From contig CAVUCU010000004.1 of NCBI GenBank assembly GCA_963740085.1, positions 641,996 through 705,995 of the forward strand: a stretch of DNA of 64,000 bases. Reading direction: 5' to 3'. The position numbers and the translations under genes are program-made. Under the pieces are notes generated by a model. The model made no database searches, had not been told where the DNA came from, and saw only the letters and a program-made list of their open reading frames with translations. Shown in pieces: positions 39,454-49,479 of this stretch (positions are counted from its first letter, which is position 1; each line of letters opens with the position of its first letter). Source of the stretch: Nitrospirota bacterium (GTDB lineage Bacteria; Nitrospirota; UBA9217).

Positions 39454-40530
39454 TTATTTTTTTCGAAAATGCCCCTCTCGCATTTTCAACAAAACCAGAA
39501 ACTTCTTATAATTTGAGTACGTATATAAATTGGCATTTCTTGAGTAGATTACGGGTTCTCCAAGAACCATATCAATTTTTGTGATTTTGGCCAGAACGAT
39601 AAATTGATTGGGGTTTTTAAATTCTTGATCATATTTTAAAAAGTATACATTTGATTTATCCATGCCCTGAAGGTTAAGCCCTACAAGTTCCTCTTTAGTT
39701 GAAAGGATAGTAATATTTTTCCCGGTTTTAAATTTTATATAGTCGCTCCAGTAAGGAGCGAAAGTTACCGCTATATTTATATGGCCATATAATGATGGGG
39801 CATAAATTACACTATTTTCGGGAATAGAGATAAATTCGCCCGTTTTAAGCAGCTGGTCAATCGTTCTCCACTTGAGATGGGACTGTGTCTGGCTAAGGGT
39901 AACGTGATAATTTGAGTAGTCGACGATGAAACTCGTAATGGCTATAATAAGGCCTACAGATACAGCATACAACAATAATAACAACTTATGGGATGAGAAT
40001 AACTGTTTCACATAAATTATCAATATTGTGAAAAACAAAACTGTTCCAAAATATGAAAAGAAGGTAACCGTATGAGCTAATGAACCAGCAGACACAACCC
40101 AGTACTGATATTTTGTTGTTAACGCTATAAGAAAGACGGGTGCAATGAAGAGTGTTATGGACAATAATGCGGTTAACCAATAGGTTCTCTTGCTGAAGTT
40201 GGTGGATTTATGTTGAATGAGGTGATAAACTAAATATGAACTGATCAATGCCTTGGTAATCCACTCTACCCTGGCATTCTTAACAATATGAATAATGCTG
40301 GAACGATGGCCCTCAAAAGCGGCAGAGTAATCATTAAACATCGGGGTAAAATGACTATATATATAAGTTGGCAGAGAACTAACGCTATATTGGTACATAA
40401 CTTTGGCAAAAGAGATGAAAGAAAAGTGGGAAATAATATTTCCCTCATAACGAGACGGATAAAAATGTCTAAATGTAAAATAGATGGCTGCATATATGAA
40501 TAACGCTGCTGCATGAGGGATAATTCTCAA
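39454..40530 (-). CDS. polytopic membrane protein (C-terminal part of a putative GT-C/Wzy-like glycan-modifying enzyme)
   Basis: It has many TM helices, AT-rich codon usage, and a 4-nt ATGA overlap with the upstream ORF. It might be one gene together with 40527-41132. Confidence 0.4.
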   Translation of the reverse strand: MRIIPHAAALFIYAAIYFTFRHFYPSRYEGNIISHFSFISFAKVMYQYSVSSLPTYIYSHFTPMFNDYSAAFEGHRSSIIHIVKNARVEWITKALISSYLVYHLIQHKSTNFSKRTYWLTALLSITLFIAPVFLIALTTKYQYWVVSAGSLAHTVTFFSYFGTVLFFTILIIYVKQLFSSHKLLLLLYAVSVGLIIAITSFIVDYSNYHVTLSQTQSHLKWRTIDQLLKTGEFISIPENSVIYAPSLYGHINIAVTFAPYWSDYIKFKTGKNITILSTKEELVGLNLQGMDKSNVYFLKYDQEFKNPNQFIVLAKITKIDMVLGEPVIYSRNANLYTYSNYKKFLVLLKMREGHFRKK

Positions 40531-41132
40531 AAAAGCTTTCGAAAATGCTTCTTGAGTTTGTTGATTGGGATCACTTCTATAAAAAAAGAGACAAAGATAA
40601 AAAGAACAAAATACATCGCGAATACTTCATAAAGTAATAACGTAAGGAAAAACAAAACGGTACTAATAATCAGGCGACTTATTTTATTTGTATCAACATA
40701 TTGCTTGAAATAAATCAAGCATATCATAAAAATACAGATGCCTGCATGAAAGACAAACGGGTATGAAGTTAAAAGGTAATGGTCCCACATATTCTGTAAA
40801 CCGACTAAATAAATAATGATGAGAAGAACCGCATAATGAAGCGATCTGTAAAATGTATAAATCATGTATCCAAATAATAGAATATTTACAATTATAATGC
40901 CGATAGAAATGAATTTATAATATACAAAGTTTCTTACGAGATATGGTACTTTGGCGAATTGGTAAGCAACAGGCATGAAAAATCTGCCTTGATCTTTAGC
41001 AATATTAATTTCACCGGTAATTCCAGTATGTTTTGAACTACTTAATTCTAGCACCATGTCGTCATTCGTAGTAAAACCAACATTGATTAATGGATAAAAA
41101 GTAAAAACGATCAATATGCCAATCATTAACAT
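40527..41132 (-). CDS. polytopic membrane protein with a DD motif in the first extracytoplasmic loop (putative GT-C fold N-terminal part)
   Basis: TM1 is followed by GFTTNDDMVLEL and then multiple TM helices. GT-C enzymes (ArnT, PglB, PMT, GtrC types) carry an acidic motif in this position (established knowledge). Confidence 0.4.
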   Translation of the reverse strand: MLMIGILIVFTFYPLINVGFTTNDDMVLELSSSKHTGITGEINIAKDQGRFFMPVAYQFAKVPYLVRNFVYYKFISIGIIIVNILLFGYMIYTFYRSLHYAVLLIIIYLVGLQNMWDHYLLTSYPFVFHAGICIFMICLIYFKQYVDTNKISRLIISTVLFFLTLLLYEVFAMYFVLFIFVSFFIEVIPINKLKKHFRKLF

Positions 41133-41910
41133 GATGGCCGAGCTAACCTTTTTGTCAGAAACTAAATTTCCATCAAGAAAATCCTCTTCCCGAACGCTTA
41201 TTGATTATTGATAATATTCAGCAATCTGCTCCAATATGCCTCGATTGAGTAGTTTTTCAGGAAGAACTCCCTTACGTTGGAGTAAAATCCTTCACATCTG
41301 ACTTTATCAAGCATCGTCGTATTCAGCACATCACGAAACTACTCATAGGGATCGTACGCGCATCCCGCTTTTGAGTCCACGATATGTTGGTTCAAATCAA
41401 AAACTGATCCAAACGGTCTTTTATGCCAAAACCGACAATGCTGTTCGGGACCTTATCTCTATAATAAATGTTCCTCGATTTTTCTCGGCATTGGTCATAA
41501 AAAGATGCGTAGAGAGAGGCCATGAAAATGAAGTAGTCGTCGTAGTCGTCTTAATAGCCCGATATATATTCAAGGAAGTGACTGGCGCATAAGGCCCTTC
41601 AAATTTCATCCACTCCTCACTAAGGCCGAGCGCAGTTTTCTTTTTTGGTATGCTGCGAAAACCGCGCTCACAACGGCTTCGGATTGTTGAAAGATCCCTT
41701 GCGTCTTCGGCAGCTATAACAGCTCAAGAAACAGGCTGAGGATGTATCCGATGACGGAAACACGATATGATTTCGTTATGACAAATCTCATCAGAAGGTC
41801 TTTTATGCGTGCATTATTCCCCTCCTCCTCTTTTGAATATTACAAGTTTGAGAGGATTTCAGGCTTTGATAACTGTCCACTCCTTGATTTATCTAAAAGG
41901 AGTTGGAATC

Positions 41911-43986
41911 CTAAAGCATCCGGTTCTCTTCCCATGATGGTCCGATAAGCATTGTGCATGATTTTTTTGTGATAATGTCGATGATTTGGCGAGCGCTATC
42001 CGCCCGATTCAGCCTCGGCATGTCATCGGACTTCGGATGCCTGCTCAATCCACAAAGACTATTGAGTTTTTTTACGTCCGCAAGGTCAGCGGCTTCCGTC
42101 CCGTTGAAGAAGTATGCAGACCGGCCCGCCACCTCGCGGAACACTGGAATATCGCGGCATGATCGGCAACTTGTGTTTGGCGGCCTCGATGAGCGGCAGG
42201 CCAAAACCTTCTCCTTCACTAGCAGCGATCAAGCAGGTGCTGGACAGCGTAAACTTTCTCCATATATTCATCGCTAGTGCTTTCCAGCCAGAATAATCGT
42301 TTGCCCAATTCGTGATGGTTGCGCGAGGTATCTGCCAGCGACCCCATCTTCCAACCCTGCTTGCCGACGACAACCAGATTCGCCTCAAAGCCCTCTGTCC
42401 ATAACTGTTCGAATGCGGCGATTGTTTGGATATGCCCTTTACGTGGTTCAAGCGTACCAACCATCAAGAAAATCGGACGTTTAGCTAGGAGACTAACACT
42501 GCCCCGGCATTTTCTGGCATGCCTCTCAATGGGCAGGATCGATGCAAATGTCTGCTCCCAAATGGTGCCAGTCAATCTTGAATGGCCGCTAACGGGCTGG
42601 CAGTCCTGTTTGTCTTTAGCCAGTCTGCAAGCTCACCAGCTACTGCTTTGGAGATGCAAATGGCACCATCGCTTTCGGCAACGGCCTTCAGCCAAGCCTG
42701 ATGCTGCTTTGTCGCCTCCTTAGTAAAAGCCTCGGGTAGGTTAATCGGCAACAGGTCATACACCACGAATTGAACCTGCACACCACGTTTGCGCAACAGC
42801 TGGAAAAAGGCTTGCTGCGCCGGCACGACTTCTGGCTGTAAGTCCAGCCCGAGAAACACACTCCAGCCCGAAACTCGATGGTGTCGTCTGATAGGGCCAA
42901 TCCCGGACAGTTGAGGAAGCTTAAAGTGAACTGCCGTGCATAGCGGTAGCCTTCGATCAGTTGTGGCATATACGGGCTCAACTTTGAAGCCTTCCAGGCG
43001 AATGGATGAGCAGTTCCTGCAGGATGCTGCGCACCACGCGCTGAATTCCAGTTTTCGAGTCACGCTGGACCAGTTTTCGAAATGTCTACCAATAACTGAC
43101 GGGGGGCGAGCAGTGGCGGGATGGAAAGAAATCGCTTCAGCAATAGGCACCCAAGCTTGCGAGTCTGACGGCGGTTCAACACAGGCCAGCGCACGTATCA
43201 AGGCAGTCACGTTGGTGTGTGCTGCGCGGCACATCGTCTCGATTGCCTTCTCATACTGGTCAGCACAGTCTCGCGGATCATGGCGAGTAAGAATGATTTC
43301 CCGTGCTTTAATACCTAGTTGTTGTCGACAAGCTGGTTCTCGCCACAGTGTTTCTAATGCGTTGACCAACTCATTATCACAAAACTCATCCGGAAGTTTC
43401 CAAACACCATCTTCCGCCAAGTCCGCCATGCTGCCATTGGCATTGACGATGGTCGGAATACCGTAATTCATACAATCGAGCACTGAGGCCGAAGTTTCTC
43501 CACGGGAAAGTGTGCGCAGTTGCACAGCCACATCAGCCGCCGCGAGGTAGTGTCGGAAGGTGGTGATATCAGTCCAACCTGTGATGCGAATACGCTTACT
43601 CAAGCCGCTTTGGCGTATCGTGTCGAGCATCGCAGCGCCATATTCACTGCTATGATTTTCACCGACGAATACTAATACGCAATTGCCGTTTTTTGCTAAA
43701 TCCGAAGCTAGCCACGCATTAAAGCAGGCGTTGGTTCAGTTTAGTGAGGTCCGAGCACTCCAAAACTACACACTGCAAAATCATCATTCTCCAATTTCAC
43801 GGCAGGCGGCGTAGCTCCTCCGGCACGGATCGATATCAAAGGCTGGGGACGCGTAGCAGTGGAATGAGCGGCCCAATCGGTCAGCAGCGCCTTTTTGTTA
43901 ATCCAATGGGTTTGCAAAGCCGCCGCGAACTTCTCGGAATGCACAATCACACCGTGCGCATTTTTTAAGGCATCTCTAGGTTGCAT
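41911..43986 (-). pseudogene. decayed glycosyltransferase family 4 gene remnants, with at least three frame changes
   Basis: GT4 fragments lie in different frames: RITGWTDITTFRHYLAAADVAVQ...CMNYGIPTIVNANGSMADL, then RPIFLMVGTLEPRKG..LVVVGKQGW..KRLFWLESTSDEYMEKVYA, then STCLIAASEGEGFGLPLIEAAKHKLPI, then RDIPVFREVAGRSAYFFN, plus GVIVHSEKFAAAL at 43741-43986. Confidence 0.6.
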
Positions 43987-44120
43987 GGATAGCGCCAGGG
44001 CACTTCAGCAAAGTAACTGATGCATCAAATAAATGCTGCAGCATGGCCGCATAGCCATGGTTTTGATAGAGTGCATTTAATCCAAGAATCAGATCCTTGG
44101 CCACTAAAATGCATGTGGCC

Positions 44121-45698
44121 CTACGACACCAGATAGAAAAAAGTCATGCAGCACGATCGATACCCGGTACCTTTCTCCAGTAAATCAAACATGTGCTGAT
44201 GTAAGTAGTTGTTGCCAAAATGATAGAGCACCCGGTCGTAACGGTCTGCGTGAGATCTGAGCCATGCCGCGCTACGTATTGTGCAGTTAGCCTTGATCCA
44301 CGAGTCGGATACGATATCCTGCGCCACAATCAGGTCGATATCATAATGACGTGAAAGCTCGGGCAGCAGCTCTGCGCTGTAATCACTGATCCCGCTATGC
44401 ACGGGTGGCAAAGGAGAGACATACGCCATCTTGGGTCGACGGGCGGGCCTGTTATCGGTCAATGGTTGGTGGGCCTTCTTAACATACAACGCCTCAACAG
44501 CAGCAATTGCCCGTTGCGCGCTGGTATCCCATGAAAACCGCTTGGCTTGTTCAAGACCATGTTGCTCCAGATCTGCCCGGAAGGCATCGTCAGTCAACAC
44601 CTGCGCGAGTTTTTCAGTAATGGACGTATCGTTCATGGGGTCGAAGAGGGCGTCATCCCGGCCTATCACTTCCGGCACACTGGAAGTGTTGGCGCCAATC
44701 ACTGCCCGACCACAGGTCATCGCTTCCAGCGCTGGCAAGCCGAAGCCTTCATGCCATGAGGGGAACACGAACGCTTTGCACAGGCCGTATAGCGTCAGTA
44801 GATCTTCTTCAGGCACAAACCCGGTCAGAACCAGTTCCTCAGCCTTCAGCCCCTGCTCCTTGGCTAGCGTTTCCAGTGCACCACGGCTGTCAGGCGTCAG
44901 ATTAGCGCTGACAATTACCAATTGGTGGCTTGTTTGTAACGGTTTGGGCAGTTTAGCGTATGCGCGTATAAGACCTTCAACGTTCTTACGGTGGTCAATG
45001 CCGCCTGTATTCATTACAAATTGCCGATGTAAACCGTAACGCTGGCGGACCTCTTGCTCTCGCTCACAGTCGATATGCTGTGGCTGAAATTGCGGGTCAG
45101 CCGCCGAGGAAATATTGACACATGCTACGGAGGGAAAACCGAGGTAACGGATCCCCTCTCGCCGAGACGATTCGGAAATTGCAAGCAGAAGGTCGGCCCG
45201 GCGCAGATGATCGAGTTTGTTCTCGTACCAGGCCTCCACCACTGGATTTTCCAAGTAGGGATTGCGCTGGATCAGTGGAATCAGGTCATACAGGATAACC
45301 GCTGTTGGCACGGTGCGGCTCAGGGTGCCGATGCTGGTGACCGCATTATCGCGTGCCCCTTCGAACAGGCTACTGACGAGAACAATATCCGGCTTGAAGC
45401 TGCCCAAAAAAGCCTCGCGAACCAACTCGGCAGTGCATCGGCGCCAATCGTTTTCCTTGCTTACATGACACACCGGTTCCGGCGACTTCCAGACACCGAT
45501 ATTTTTTTGCGGCAGCAAGCCATCAAAAGCGGCACGTATCGTTTCAATGGTGTCTGGAAACAGCTCATTGAGAGCGAGAAACACCGTGTGCATACCACGA
45601 TTACGAACGATGGCCTGAGCTAAGGATAGCGTATAACGTCCAATGCCATGTTGCTGATTACTGCCCTGCGCTCCTTGCATATCAATCACAATGCGCAT
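44121..45698 (-). CDS. glycosyltransferase (WbdA/WbpX-like mannosyl/rhamnosyltransferase, GT4-like C-terminal domain)
   Basis: MRIVIDMQGAQGSNQQHGIGRYTLSLAQAI N-terminus, and C-terminal FVFPSWHEGFGLPALEAMTCGRAVIGANTSSVPEV. Confidence 0.7.
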   Translation of the reverse strand: MRIVIDMQGAQGSNQQHGIGRYTLSLAQAIVRNRGMHTVFLALNELFPDTIETIRAAFDGLLPQKNIGVWKSPEPVCHVSKENDWRRCTAELVREAFLGSFKPDIVLVSSLFEGARDNAVTSIGTLSRTVPTAVILYDLIPLIQRNPYLENPVVEAWYENKLDHLRRADLLLAISESSRREGIRYLGFPSVACVNISSAADPQFQPQHIDCEREQEVRQRYGLHRQFVMNTGGIDHRKNVEGLIRAYAKLPKPLQTSHQLVIVSANLTPDSRGALETLAKEQGLKAEELVLTGFVPEEDLLTLYGLCKAFVFPSWHEGFGLPALEAMTCGRAVIGANTSSVPEVIGRDDALFDPMNDTSITEKLAQVLTDDAFRADLEQHGLEQAKRFSWDTSAQRAIAAVEALYVKKAHQPLTDNRPARRPKMAYVSPLPPVHSGISDYSAELLPELSRHYDIDLIVAQDIVSDSWIKANCTIRSAAWLRSHADRYDRVLYHFGNNYLHQHMFDLLEKGTGYRSCCMTFFYLVS

Positions 45699-46483
45699 CA
45701 GTTTTTCCCCGCTTTGATGGCTTTTTGCAAGTCAGCATAGATGCGGGTGGCGCGGGGAGAAAGGTTCTTTACTAACGGCGCGGCATCATCACTGTCCGCA
45801 TATTTAATTGCTGCGTCGTCACTGTCCGTATATTTCATTGAAGCACCTATGCCCACACCAATGATCAGCCCCGATCTCGCAGCGAACTCGCGCAGTCGTT
45901 GCACGAGTCGAGGCTGTTTGGTCAACATGGTCTTCACATGCGCTTTCAGGCGATAGTTGGAAAGGGTCTTTCGCATGACCCACAGCACCAGCGGCTTGAC
46001 CATTTGCTTTATCAGGCGTGGCATCCAGAGTACTATACGCTTGGTTATCAATACAATAAATTTGGCTATCCTCACAGCCTGACGAAGCGGCCAGGTGATT
46101 AGCCAGGACTTGCTTGTATAAACGTCCTGAAGCTCACAGTTGAGACCTTCGGCCACTTGATTAAGTTCATCAATTTTCGCTTTGGCCGCATCCCATTCAT
46201 TCTGTAGCCATTGGCTATTCGCTTGCAGACGGGTATTATGCTCGTTAACTCCATTCAGTTCGGCAGCAAGCTTCTCCGCTTTTTGATTGGCCGCATCCCA
46301 TTCATTCTGTAGCCATTGGTTATGCGCTTGCAGACTGGAATTATGCTCGTTAACTCCATTCAGTTCGGCAGCAAGCTTCTCCGCTTTTTGATTGGCCGCA
46401 TCCCATTCATTCTGTAGCCATTGCACGGAGGCTTCGGCTTGCGTGATCAGTTCTGTCTCTCTTGCCTGGTGTGACGCTATCAC
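45698..46483 (-). CDS. coiled-coil repeat protein; candidate WbdD-like chain-length ruler/terminator module
   Basis: There are 2.5 perfect copies of a 35-aa heptad-rich unit, QWLQNEWDAANQKAEKLAAELNGVNEHNSSLQAHN. The gene lies between FkbM methyltransferase fragments and a GT4 in an ABC-dependent O-polysaccharide locus. Confidence 0.5.
   Translation of the reverse strand: MIASHQARETELITQAEASVQWLQNEWDAANQKAEKLAAELNGVNEHNSSLQAHNQWLQNEWDAANQKAEKLAAELNGVNEHNTRLQANSQWLQNEWDAAKAKIDELNQVAEGLNCELQDVYTSKSWLITWPLRQAVRIAKFIVLITKRIVLWMPRLIKQMVKPLVLWVMRKTLSNYRLKAHVKTMLTKQPRLVQRLREFAARSGLIIGVGIGASMKYTDSDDAAIKYADSDDAAPLVKNLSPRATRIYADLQKAIKAGKN
46150..46445. repeat. tandem 105-nt direct repeat (about 2.5 copies) inside the coiled-coil gene
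   Basis: The unit starting ggccgcatcccattcattctgtagccattgg recurs at 46184, 46289 and 46394 with near-perfect identity. Confidence 0.8.
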
Positions 46484-46510
46484 CCCTTACAAAAATAGGA
46501 ACTCGATCCG

Positions 46511-47140
46511 TCACATTACATCGTCAAACACATTTGGCGGTGAAGAAAATGCCTCAGCAAGCTCGGCATGTTCCTTTGCCACATAAAAACGATTGAGCCC
46601 GTCAAAGTAAACAAACTGATATTTCGCTGCAGTGAAAATAGGGTCCCAGCCTGCGTAGTCTGTCTCGGGCGAGCCGGGAATGGTCGCCTCAACCACCATT
46701 ACCCAGGGACGCAGGGTTTGGCTGTCCCAGCCTTTCAGCACCTTTTCTTCAAATCCTTCCACATCAATTTTGAGCCAATGAACTTCTTTTCCCGACAGCG
46801 ACCGCAATGCTGATTTCAAAGTCAAAACTGGCACCTGGATCCTTGGCGATCAAAACCTCGCTCCGTTTGATGGCGTTCTGCGAACGCATCCTCGACGGTA
46901 CTGAGGCCGGTGCCTGGAATGACATTGAACTCCAGCGTGCCTTCGGTATCAGCCAACGCAACTTGCAGCACCGTTCGTCCGGTCTGTCCTGGCGCAGCAG
47001 TTCGGCATATTCAGGAACAGGCTCAATGTGAATACCCCGCCAGCCGTGCTCATAAAAGGCTTGCTCACAGAATCCACCACCGGGTGCTGCGCGCCAACGT
47101 CGACATAAACTCCGATTTCACATGCTTGAGCGCGCGCCAA
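46511..47140 (-). pseudogene. FkbM-family methyltransferase broken into fragments
   Basis: The C-terminal fragment ORF 46511-46834 (HWLKIDVEGFEEKVLKGW) and the N-terminal-like fragment 46949-47140 (IGVYVDVGAQHP) are in a different frame. Confidence 0.45.
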
Positions 47141-47189
47141 AGCATCACGTCTTCAAAATTTTGGGCGTAAGAGACAAAACTCATTGTGT

Positions 47190-48430
47190 ACCTTCCTGAC
47201 TCTGGCGAGAAATGACAAATTGGCCATCAAGCCAGTTACTGCCAATAAAAATGTCGCGGTTTCCATTGATCACATCAAACACCAGCATGTTATCTATCCA
47301 TTCAAAGTTATCGATCAGATGAGTATCTGTACTCACAAGAGCTGGAGAAACCGAGTACGAACCCGGTCCCAGGGTGCAGGTAAATGCAACTTGAAGACAA
47401 CGGTTTCGCCTGTTTTAACGCCTCTTGTATTTGGTGCGTGTGCCAGGTGTTGGTACCCCACACCACATGGCCTTGCTTGTCACGGATCATGTAAGCCGAG
47501 CACGAGCCGAGGTATTCGGCATGAATCGTGAGCTTCGAGCCGCAATTCCACCGCCTGGCCGATTTGCGCGACGGCTAACTCGGTGCCTGTAGCAGCATCT
47601 AATAGTTGAAGTGATTTACGCGCGCCTCGCCCGTTCCGCTCCTGGTAAGCAACCAGCCATCTTTCTTGCGGCGCTGCTCAATGCTAAGTTTTGCGTTTTC
47701 TTTTTCTGCAATGAGGGCATTGTAGTAGTCCACAACTTCGTCGGGCTGTCCGTCTTTAAGCACGCCTCCCTTATCCAACAAGATGACACTGTCGCACAGG
47801 GTGCGCACGACATCCAGACATGGGTAACCATCATGATAGAAATGCCTTCGACTTTAAACTGCCTGATACGATCAAAGCTTTTATGCTGAAAATAGCTGTC
47901 ACCAACACTCAAAACCTCATCAACGATGAGTACATCTGGCGTCACTGCCGTCGCCAGGGCGAAGGCCAAGCGGGCATTCATACCGCTCGAGTAAACCCGC
48001 AGGGGTTGATCGAAAAACTCTCCAATCTCGGCAAAATTCTCAATGTCAGGCATCAAGATCGTCAACTCGGAAGTGCTGAGTCCCATCAAACCACCAGAAG
48101 ATAAACATTTTGCCGAGCAGTAAAGTCTGGATTGAATCCTAGTCCAAGTTCAAGAATTGCGCTGATACGTCCATTGATTTTTACGCTTCCAGTACTAGGG
48201 CGAACGGTACCGGTGATCAATTTAAGCAAGGTGCTCTTCCCTGCGCCATTCTGGCCGATAATCGCCAATGCTTCGCCTCGGCGCAGAGTAAAATTCACAT
48301 TTTTCAGTGCCCAATATTCATGCACATGCTGCGACGGAAATCCAAACCATTGTGAAAACCGTGTAAAATTGTTGCGATACGTGGTATAGCATTTCCCCAC
48401 CCCTGAGACATTCAGAACTGTATCACTCAT
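47190..48430 (-). pseudogene. wzt: O-antigen ABC transporter ATP-binding protein Wzt with at least two frameshifts and a degraded C-terminal domain
   Basis: Walker A GQNGAGKST (48086-48430), then ABC signature YSSGMNARLAFALA and Walker B LIVDEV (47616-48089, a different frame), then RTLCDSVILLDKGGVLKDGQPDEV (47599-47808, a third frame). Remnants such as GHVVWGTNTWHT lie further downstream. Confidence 0.7.
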
Positions 48431-49221
48431 AGTTCATCCACTAAATCAGCACTGGCCCGACGAAAGACCAAAAATGAGATCATGAACAAAGTTGCTGATA
48501 CCAGGATTGGGATCAGCAAAGTTCCCCATTGCGGGAAAGTGTTATAGAGCATGGCATCCTGATAAAGTTTGACCAGAGGCGCCATCGGATTAAATACTGC
48601 AAGCCAACTCAGACTCTTCGACAGGGTGCCTGATGTGTAAACGACTGGAGTAAGCCAAAACCATATTTGCATGACAACGGTGAAAACTTGTCCGACATCG
48701 CGCACAAATACGTTGAAGACGCCCAGCAAGACACCGAGGCCGAATGCAAACGCGGTGACCACAAGCATCCCAATCGGTAAAACCACCCAGGCAACACCGG
48801 GAAAATGGCCAAAAAATAAAAAGACTACTGCTGTAGCAAGAAGCAATAATACGTGATTCAACAGCGCGCTGCCTCCCACAATTACCGGCAGACAAAGGCG
48901 GGGGAAAGAGATTTTTTTAAGCACACCAGCGTACTCGATAAAGATAGTCGTGCAACGGGTTATGATCTCGGCAAAAAATCCCCACGCCGCCATGCCAGCC
49001 ATCAGGTAGATGGCATAGCCGGCTTTATTTGTCACTCCTGGTAGTTTTGACCCCAAAACCTCTGATAATACCAGCGCATAGATGGCAGCTTGCATCAATG
49101 GATGCAGGATAAACCAGAGCGCCCCAAGGCTGGAGCGCGCGAATCGACGCTTTAATTCCCCTTGTATTGATGAAATAATAAAATGCCGGAATTTCCAAAG
49201 GGCCTGAATAATTTGTTTCAA
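48427..49221 (-). CDS. wzm: O-antigen ABC transporter permease
   Basis: ABC-2 permease of 264 aa with about six TM helices. RRFARSSLGALWFILHPLMQAAIYALV is typical of Wzm/KpsM. Its ATGA overlaps wzt. Confidence 0.8.
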   Translation of the reverse strand: MKQIIQALWKFRHFIISSIQGELKRRFARSSLGALWFILHPLMQAAIYALVLSEVLGSKLPGVTNKAGYAIYLMAGMAAWGFFAEIITRCTTIFIEYAGVLKKISFPRLCLPVIVGGSALLNHVLLLLATAVVFLFFGHFPGVAWVVLPIGMLVVTAFAFGLGVLLGVFNVFVRDVGQVFTVVMQIWFWLTPVVYTSGTLSKSLSWLAVFNPMAPLVKLYQDAMLYNTFPQWGTLLIPILVSATLFMISFLVFRRASADLVDEL

Positions 49222-49479
49222 TTATATTCTCCTCATTGCAGTCGGACTCGGCAAAAGCTTCATCTTTGAAAGAATACCCGCAATCAGGTAGATGCCGTAG
49301 CTGTAAGTATTTGATGACGCACCCTGCAGACGCGCTCCCATGACCTGCGAAAAAATTATGGTGTACACAAAGATATTCACCAGGGGCCAGATAAAGGTCC
49401 AGAAGACCCCAAGGACGGAGCCTGAGTACCGTTCTGTAAAATCTCGTTTTGTCAGTTCTATTAATAAGCTTATATTCAA
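49222..49479 (-). pseudogene. N-terminal fragment of a second, divergent Wzm-type permease
   Basis: ELTKRDFTERYSGSVLGVFWTFIWPLVNIFVYTIIF is a Wzm N-terminus, but only about 85 aa before a stop. It is directly adjacent to the intact wzm. Confidence 0.45.

Follow-up and report, generated by a model that had tools for sequence, protein, structure and literature searches.

A probably pseudogenised FkbM-headed relative of the WbdD-type O-antigen chain terminators in a decayed wzm-wzt cassette of a Nitrospirota bacterium

In this study, a stretch of 64,000 nucleotides from a Nitrospirota bacterium (GTDB lineage Bacteria; Nitrospirota; UBA9217; GenBank assembly GCA_963740085.1, contig CAVUCU010000004.1, positions 641,996 to 705,995 of the forward strand), here called the window, was analysed around one open reading frame (ORF) of 261 codons at 45698..46483 on the minus strand. 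An earlier note, made from the letters alone, had described this ORF as a coiled-coil protein with perfect 105-nt tandem repeats and as a candidate WbdD-like ruler of O-chain length. The neighbourhood is as that note had described it: FkbM-type methyltransferase fragments (PF05050, E 9e-11) lie upstream, a GT4 glycosyltransferase begins at the ORF stop, and wzt and wzm lie beyond the FkbM fragments. The flagged ORF, as it appears in the ORF list, is the undamaged 3' remnant, comprising a coiled coil together with a C-terminal anchor, of a longer wbdD-like pseudogene.

A protein search with the ORF product returned 11 relatives at 30-48% identity and one fragment at 87%, and the best locus in a scan of genome contigs was 43% identical. 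The full-length relatives P0007 (412 aa) and P0011 (418 aa) have an N-terminal FkbM domain, a QWLQNEWDAAK helix and the same C-terminus, and so does P0004 (381 aa), the longest of the partial relatives. P0007, P0011 and the intact 540-aa orthologue at locus L001 cover the whole of 47184-45701 only when six frameshifts are bridged, which were placed by tblastn and frameshift-aware alignment at 47115, 47059, 46976, 46845, 46513 and 46485. In the frameshift-aware alignment, the L001 orthologue and P0007 are matched from MSFVSYAQNFEDVMLWRALKH at 47184 as far as the stop at 45701. The whole pseudogene (45701..47184, minus strand) corresponds to a product of about 497 aa, with an FkbM methyltransferase, a linker, a coiled coil and, at the C-terminus, an anchor, and the frameshifts are confined to the methyltransferase and the linker. 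The methyltransferase remnant (46511..47184, minus strand) contains four -1 frameshifts, and the PF05050 match falls on the fragment 46511-46834 (42.6 bits against a cutoff of 22.7). With the frameshifts bridged, the remnant is 80-87% identical in amino acids to L001 and P0012, and the reconstructed 497-aa protein matches TIGR01444 fkbM_fam at 72.4 bits (cutoff 37.7) over model positions 1-137 of 143.

The +1 frameshift at 46513 and the -1 frameshift at 46485 (GGGGG to GGGG) are 28 nt apart and yield two apparent in-frame stops above the GTG codon at 46483. The shifted frame above the GTG encodes SSSYFCKG, where the closest relative has SSYFCRG, and the metagenomic relative L015 (protein P0012) is open without a break across the stretch just upstream of the window GTG. 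Because the homologues align through 46483 into the upstream methyltransferase fragments, the GTG start is an artefact of ORF calling. A free-standing coiled-coil protein was therefore not borne out, as the ORF is the last 261 codons of a pseudogene of about 497 codons. The note had also asked whether the upstream fragments could once have been fused to the ORF; they were, since the homologues align continuously across the frameshifts.

The genes on both sides of the pseudogene are damaged as well. The wzt pseudogene (47184..48430, minus strand) comprises an ABC ATPase and a Wzt_C carbohydrate-binding module, and has six frameshifts relative to L001 Wzt (48100, 47819, 47619, 47494, 47421 and 47386), with 289 of 416 residues identical. 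Pfam scans of the short wzt fragments gave no match before the frameshifts were bridged; the C-terminus of the reconstructed Wzt matches PF14524 Wzt_C at 90.9 bits (cutoff 30.4, E 1e-25). The wzm gene for the ABC-2 permease (48427..49221, minus strand; PF01061 match) is an open frame and apparently intact, with no lesion against L001 Wzm. On the other side, the wbdA-like multi-GT4 polymerase pseudogene (41968..45698, minus strand), aligned to a 1235-aa L001 protein, carries 21 lesions (19 frameshifts and 2 stops), all downstream of 44163. Its first GT4 module is open for 525 codons (44121-45698, minus strand), and its ATG overlaps the stop of the flagged ORF in the sequence TGATG, an overlap that is also found between terminator and GT4 in intact orthologues. 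This 525-codon frame terminates at a frameshift and not at the native C-terminus.

In total, 33 lesions lie across about 6.5 kb of the cassette. An intact, expressible wbdD-like gene was not found at 45701-47184, where the frameshifts extend from 47115 to 46485, and its wzt and polymerase partners are broken too. Judged from the sequence, the wzm-wzt-terminator-polymerase cassette is dead in this genome. Because the terminator, the transporter ATPase and the polymerase are all inactivated, no chain-length control can be attributed to the flagged ORF here, and the chain-length ruler proposed for this genome falls away.

The coiled coil itself, which the earlier note had predicted, is well supported. 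It was assessed by a heptad-register statistic against shuffled sequences, by Fourier analysis and by AlphaFold2. The stalk occupies residues 1-125 of the ORF (46109..46483, minus strand) in a single heptad register, with IEALALVLLALVLLALLV at the 'd' positions and QIVWALNNWALNSWIALK at the 'a' positions. Hydrophobic occupancy of the a and d positions was 81%, compared with 49+-4% in shuffles (z about 8), and none of 5000 shuffles reached 81%. The dominant hydrophobicity period over these residues was 3.5 residues, and they contain no proline. The AlphaFold2 model (mean pLDDT 81) has one helix at residues 2-122 with pLDDT 91-98, followed by helices at 125-175, 177-189 and 191-204, a disordered segment at 208-236 (pLDDT below 50) and a terminal helix at 243-260.

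At 46182-46423, Tandem Repeats Finder detected 2.3 copies of a repeat with a period of 105 nt, which gave 97% matches and contained no indels. The unit of 35 residues, or 5 heptads, is QWLQNEWDAANQKAEKLAAELNGVNEHNSSLQAHN. Two full units are present (46214..46423, minus strand), with a partial third copy at 46182-46213. Unit 1 (46423-46319) and unit 2 (46318-46214) are the same at 101 of 105 nt; all four differences are nonsynonymous and are confined to the last 21 nt (HNSSLQAHN vs HNTRLQANS). The third copy is identical over its first 32 nt (QWLQNEWDAA) and completely diverged beyond, with 48 of 105 mismatches overall. Because this copy matches for 32 nt only, the array is regarded as a recent single duplication. 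The 105-nt, 35-residue tandem repeat of the earlier note thus stands, with a copy count of 2.3 in place of the claimed 2.5, and the 'perfect' identity was an overstatement. An insertion of 35 residues is exactly five heptads, so that the duplication would have made the stalk about 5 nm longer with the register kept, if a rise of 1.5 Å per residue is assumed. Asn occurs at 'a' positions twice per unit and might favour dimers. A further duplication that the note had seen, KY(T/A)DSDDAA, was confirmed at the C-terminus as a 30-nt direct repeat in two copies at 45776-45835 (KYTDSDDAAI and KYADSDDAAP, 8 of 30 nt mismatched). It sits in the disordered, poorly conserved linker, and because both copies are also present in L015, this duplication is older than the split of the window and L015.

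The C-terminal region (45701..46117, minus strand) contains the YTSKSWLITWPLR motif, basic amphipathic helices, the disordered linker and the terminal helix LSPRATRIYADLQKAIKA. Residues 128-200 have a high hydrophobic moment, many Lys and Arg residues and at most one acidic residue per 18-residue window, which would fit binding to a membrane surface as in the WbdD C-terminus. For comparison with WbdD, the prototypes were WbdD(O9) of E. coli HS (708 aa, L017:7966-10092) and WbdD(O8) of E. coli IAI1 (425 aa, L018:23456-24733), and a family profile (A1) and a C-terminal-only profile (A3) were compared with them by hhalign. A1 matched residues 564-652 of WbdD(O9) with a probability of 94.3% (E 1e-7) and residues 269-420 of WbdD(O8) with a probability of 94.2% (E 1e-7, 148 columns). 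SRSWRMT and NSRSWRITQPLR stand opposite SKSWLITWPLR, and SRAMSIYNELK stands opposite SPRATRIYADLQK. In longer form, IHRSRSWRMT (O9) and LHNSRSWRITQPLR (O8) correspond to VYTSKSWLITWPLR in the window, and TSRAMSIYNELK (O8) corresponds to LSPRATRIYADLQK in the window. The consensus motifs common to WbdD and the window C-terminus are SxSWR(I/M)T and S(P)RAxxIYxxLK. The C-terminal region is homologous to the region of WbdD that binds the membrane and recruits WbdA.

The operon context agrees with this assignment. The order wzm, wzt, FkbM-coiled-coil protein and GT4 is found in L001, L002, L006 and L007, and the set of wzm, wzt with Wzt_C, terminator and multi-GT4 gene is present in the window and in these four loci. 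L001 encodes a Wzm of 264 aa, a Wzt of 416 aa with Wzt_C (108 bits, E 5e-31) that is 40% identical to Wzt(O9), a terminator of 540 aa and a triple-GT4 protein of 1235 aa. The first GT4 module of the window is 39% identical to the N-terminal module of WbdA(O9) over 399 aa (E 1e-96), and the first module of the L001 glycosyltransferase is 44% identical to WbdA(O8) (E 1e-102). One homologue is already labelled 'O-antigen chain-terminating methyltransferase' in one source. The WbdD-like assignment of the earlier note is therefore upheld, for the ancestral gene, by the C-terminal profile matches to O9 and O8, the operon context and the similarity of the GT4 module to WbdA.

The gene structure and lesions, together with the register of the coiled coil, the homology and the synteny, are what was observed here; from these we believe that the flagged ORF is very probably the intact-looking 3' part of a pseudogene whose ancestor was a WbdD-type O-polysaccharide chain terminator of an ABC-transporter-dependent pathway. 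The pseudogene belongs to the coiled-coil O-antigen terminators, a known class, and its head is of the FkbM type. In WbdD, the coiled coil acts as a ruler, the C-terminal region is membrane-associated and recruits WbdA, and capping is needed for export that depends on the carbohydrate-binding module (CBM) of Wzt (PMC3482155, PMC5082667, PMC11231755, PMC9445017). By this paradigm we infer methyl capping, ruler action and the former function of the ancestral protein. Its N-terminal FkbM-family S-adenosylmethionine (SAM) methyltransferase would have capped the growing glycan, and this methyltransferase would have been held off the membrane by a stalk, a parallel coiled coil about 120 residues (roughly 18 nm) long. 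The basic amphipathic helices would have lain on the membrane and recruited the WbdA-like GT4 polymerase, and the protein would have ended in the short conserved terminal helix. Capping would have been limited to chains long enough for the distal methyltransferase, and for export the Wzt_C module of Wzt would have recognised the cap. Stalk length would thereby have set the modal chain length, and the 105-nt duplication would have added five heptads (about 5 nm) to this measure without a change of register.

Several observations weigh against this interpretation. The methyltransferase head belongs to another family (PF05050/TIGR01444) and has no kinase, and a class I SAM methyltransferase head, as in WbdD(O8) and WbdD(O9a), was not found in the window protein; the heads of WbdD(O8) and WbdD(O9) match Methyltransf_11/25/31, and O9 additionally matches APH/Pkinase. 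The capping role of this FkbM subfamily is only predicted. Pairwise BLASTP of the flagged ORF against WbdD(O9) was not significant, sequence homology to WbdD was found nowhere outside the C-terminal region, and the C-terminal-only profile A3 matched WbdD(O9) with a probability of only 66% (E 6e-5). A phmmer search of P0007 against the Protein Data Bank (PDB) gave no match, and A1 matched only generic coiled coils there, at E 0.09 or worse. The lesions are also unevenly placed: the 2.3 kb from 46484 to 44163, which hold the flagged ORF and GT4 module 1, are free of them, and the flanks have one lesion per 100-160 nt. Under uniform placement such a gap has P = 8.5e-6, and simple uniform decay does not predict it.

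The relative L015 contains the same cassette, with 83% nucleotide identity over window positions 49232-41510, so that a cassette of about 7.7 kb is common to both; upstream of 49232 there is no similarity, and the downstream flank is still 78% identical. The L015 cassette has decayed at other sites than that of the window, and the flanking genes of L015 look intact. The dN/dS ratio between the window and L015 is 0.2-0.6 throughout the cassette. Selection therefore maintained the genes in both lineages for the greater part of their divergence, after which each lineage lost them recently and independently of the other. The dS values against L015 are mosaic, with 0.34-0.43 in wzm/wzt and 0.15-0.26 from the 3' half of the methyltransferase on. 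Between window 41500-49232 and L015 2881-10057 the indels are one-sided, with bases missing at about 190 sites in L015 and about 15 in the window, which reflects either a strong deletion bias in L015 or a lower quality of the L015 sequence.

The lesion-free gap coincides exactly with the flagged ORF and GT4 module 1, and it could be explained if these two survived as a working pair, in which the anchor tethers a WbdA-type mannosyltransferase that has been co-opted by another glycan pathway of the island. The stop/start overlap of the two frames is that of the intact orthologues, and the WbdD C-terminal region recruits WbdA in E. coli (PMC3482155). However, the pair has no plausible start, as there is zero spacing between the GTG and its only Shine-Dalgarno-like run. 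In a promoter/terminator scan no signal exceeded what shuffles gave, and the minus strand upstream of the ORF contained no promoter-like site. The dN/dS against L015 is 0.42-0.57 in the lesion-free block, no lower than the 0.46 of the lesion-ridden glycosyltransferase fragment; the same block is broken in L015, and the glycosyltransferase frame has lost its native end. Because no start signal, promoter-like site or reduced dN/dS was found, we consider a surviving pair unlikely. Extra selection on the block was also considered and is unsupported, as dN/dS is not reduced there.

A slightly less probable explanation again is that the frameshifts are sequencing or assembly errors, with the cassette intact and working and the ORF forming the C-terminal end of a WbdD-like protein of 497 aa that is still live. 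Single-base indels account for nearly all lesions, and several lie in short homopolymers (AAA to AA, GGGGG to GGGG), and the dN/dS range is that of genes selected during most of the divergence. Yet all 33 lesions fall within about 6.5 kb; two of them are stop codons, and many are insertions that do not lie in homopolymers. Genes checked in other parts of the 64-kb window, namely MiaB, PgmG, GalE, the HldE kinase domain and an acetolactate-synthase-like protein, match their family models from end to end, which argues against a general assembly error. The independent L015 assembly shows the same cassette degraded at different sites beside intact flanking genes. As for an unrelated repeat-bearing coiled-coil protein amid glycan genes, whether SMC-like, a phage tail fibre or cytoskeletal, we give it next to no credence. 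There are weak sub-threshold matches to crescentin, tropomyosin, keratin, SMC and tail-needle coiled coils, but all are below curated Pfam cutoffs or at E 0.09 or worse in PDB, which is typical of matches by composition. Every true homologue has the C-terminal module shared with WbdD, and this module is near wzt in 9 of the 14 genome loci that were fetched. The wzm-wzt synteny and the profile matches to WbdD(O9) and WbdD(O8) effectively refute such an identity.

The decayed WbdD-type terminator can be compared with several known systems. WbdD(O8) of E. coli O8 and K. pneumoniae O5 is a methyltransferase-only terminator without a kinase, like the window family, and has the same order of parts: methyltransferase, coiled coil, SxSWRIT-PLR, basic helices and a terminal SRAxxIYxxLK helix. 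The operon order of wzm, wzt, wbdD and triple-GT4 wbdA is the same as well. Unlike WbdD(O8), the window protein has an FkbM-type head (PF05050/TIGR01444) instead of class I Methyltransf_11/25, its coiled coil is longer and has the recent 35-residue duplication, and its gene has decayed to a pseudogene. WbdD(O9/O9a) of E. coli and K. pneumoniae O3 is a trimeric kinase-methyltransferase with a coiled-coil ruler of about 200 Å, whose mechanism has been documented (PMC5082667, PMC11231755). It resembles the window protein in placing the coiled coil between the catalytic head and a membrane-associated, WbdA-recruiting C-terminal region, whereas the window family lacks the kinase, uses another methyltransferase family and shows no significant pairwise similarity.

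In WbbB of K. pneumoniae O12 and ORF6 of O7, which also belong to ABC-transporter-dependent systems, the terminator is fused to the polymerase and lies at the distal end of a coiled coil (PMC11231755). These proteins use Kdo or methyl-phosphate chemistry and other domains; in the window family, by contrast, terminator and polymerase are separate proteins. The relatives L005 (2222 aa), L008 and L009 do fuse the anchor module to downstream glycosyltransferase modules, as in WbbB and ORF6. The TET operon of P. syringae (wzm-wzt-wbdD-wbdA, common polysaccharide antigen locus) is a highly variable four-gene cassette that is exchanged by recombination (PMC7820976). Like it, the window cassette is common to L015 with a different upstream flank and has a remnant of a second wzm at its edge. 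Unlike the window, P. syringae has a WbdD annotated as a SAM-dependent O-methyltransferase, no coiled-coil repeat has been reported for it, and the cassette is functional.

The homologues show how the stalk varies in length. Among 11 proteins, namely the window ORF and 10 homologues, all 18 spacings between QWLQNEW motifs are multiples of 7, from 21 to 77 residues, and the anchor always follows the last motif at a distance of 38 plus or minus a multiple of 7. Six independent loci carry tandem repeats within the coiled-coil region, and their periods of 42, 63, 63, 105, 252 and 252 nt are all multiples of 21. In addition to the 105-nt repeat of the window, these are the repeats of L003 (8100-8260, 63 nt, 97% match, in an intact gene), L004 (3239-3529, 63 nt), L005 (7421-7971, 252 nt), L006 (7259-7726, 252 nt, containing a run of N that is presumably an assembly gap) and L015 (5508-5631, 42 nt). 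The coiled-coil region of L015 has three copies of 42 nt compared with the 105 nt of the window, so that the repeat configuration does differ in a related genome; the earlier note had suggested that copy number could vary between strains. This stalk pattern is as expected of a spacer under a pure length and register constraint, and is consistent with the ruler model (PMC5082667, PMC11231755). We tentatively speculated that the ruler is built for re-sizing: its length may evolve by tandem units of whole heptads, related lineages (105 nt x2 in the window, 42 nt x3 in L015) may reset the modal O-chain length through repeat slippage or unequal recombination, and the window duplication may be such a step shortly before the death of the cassette. 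This idea is possible, and we hold it with more doubt than belief.

With a cutoff of E 1e-3, the profile of the C-terminal module matches 1394 representative clusters. Of the 82 full-length proteins that share this anchor, FkbM-type heads occur in 34 and class I methyltransferases in about 36. In the FkbM-type members, the distance from the methyltransferase end to the anchor is 53-366 residues, and 12 of 22 fall in one residue class modulo 7. The 2222-aa protein of L005 (5382-12047) combines a carbamoyltransferase head, a coiled coil, the anchor, two GT4 modules and a GT2 module. The SxSWRIT-PLR module is also present in other fusions at L009 3904-6867 and L008 3343-5382, which have either a head of PIG-L deacetylase plus GT2 or a class I methyltransferase fused to a GT4. 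The giant fusions hint at further terminating chemistries, for example carbamoylation.

Some other features surround the cassette. An 85-codon ORF at 49222-49479 (minus strand) is what is left of the N-terminal end of a second wzm and shares 40% identity with residues 15-78 of L001 Wzm. It lies directly upstream of the intact wzm, and the similarity to L015 stops at 49232; the arrangement suggests that recombination inside wzm exchanged an earlier cassette for this one. The region 38000-42000 has a low GC content (37-39%, compared with about 50% elsewhere in the window). It includes two adjacent hydrophobic ORFs without a Pfam match (39454-40530 and 40527-41132), which may encode a candidate O-antigen polymerase or ligase-like membrane protein, and about 840 nt (41132-41968) without a sizeable ORF. 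A larger glycan island (35416-38723 and 49660-53937) lies around the cassette, with a Wzx-type flippase (50689-51978), GT4 genes, a class I methyltransferase (53284-53937) and NDP-sugar genes for a nucleotidyltransferase, a 4,6-dehydratase and a DegT aminotransferase. In this island the ABC-transporter pathway may have given way to a Wzx-dependent one. Unlike E. coli, the window also carries an aminofutalosine-deaminase-like gene and a stand-alone HldE kinase domain, and a megablast of 44000-49300 against complete E. coli genomes gave no match.

For this genome the finding has little consequence, as the cassette is a dead relic in a larger polysaccharide island. For the family, the module shared with WbdD carries interchangeable capping enzymes, namely FkbM methyltransferase, class I methyltransferase and carbamoyltransferase. 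The molecular-ruler model was established by engineering of E. coli WbdD, and the heptad-quantised variation of the stalk, which in many cases arose through recent tandem duplication, adds evidence from natural variation. If copy number also varies within populations, the repeats would make O-antigen length subject to a contingency-like mechanism. A ready-made allelic series for relating stalk length to O-chain length would be offered by orthologues whose main difference is the number of repeats.

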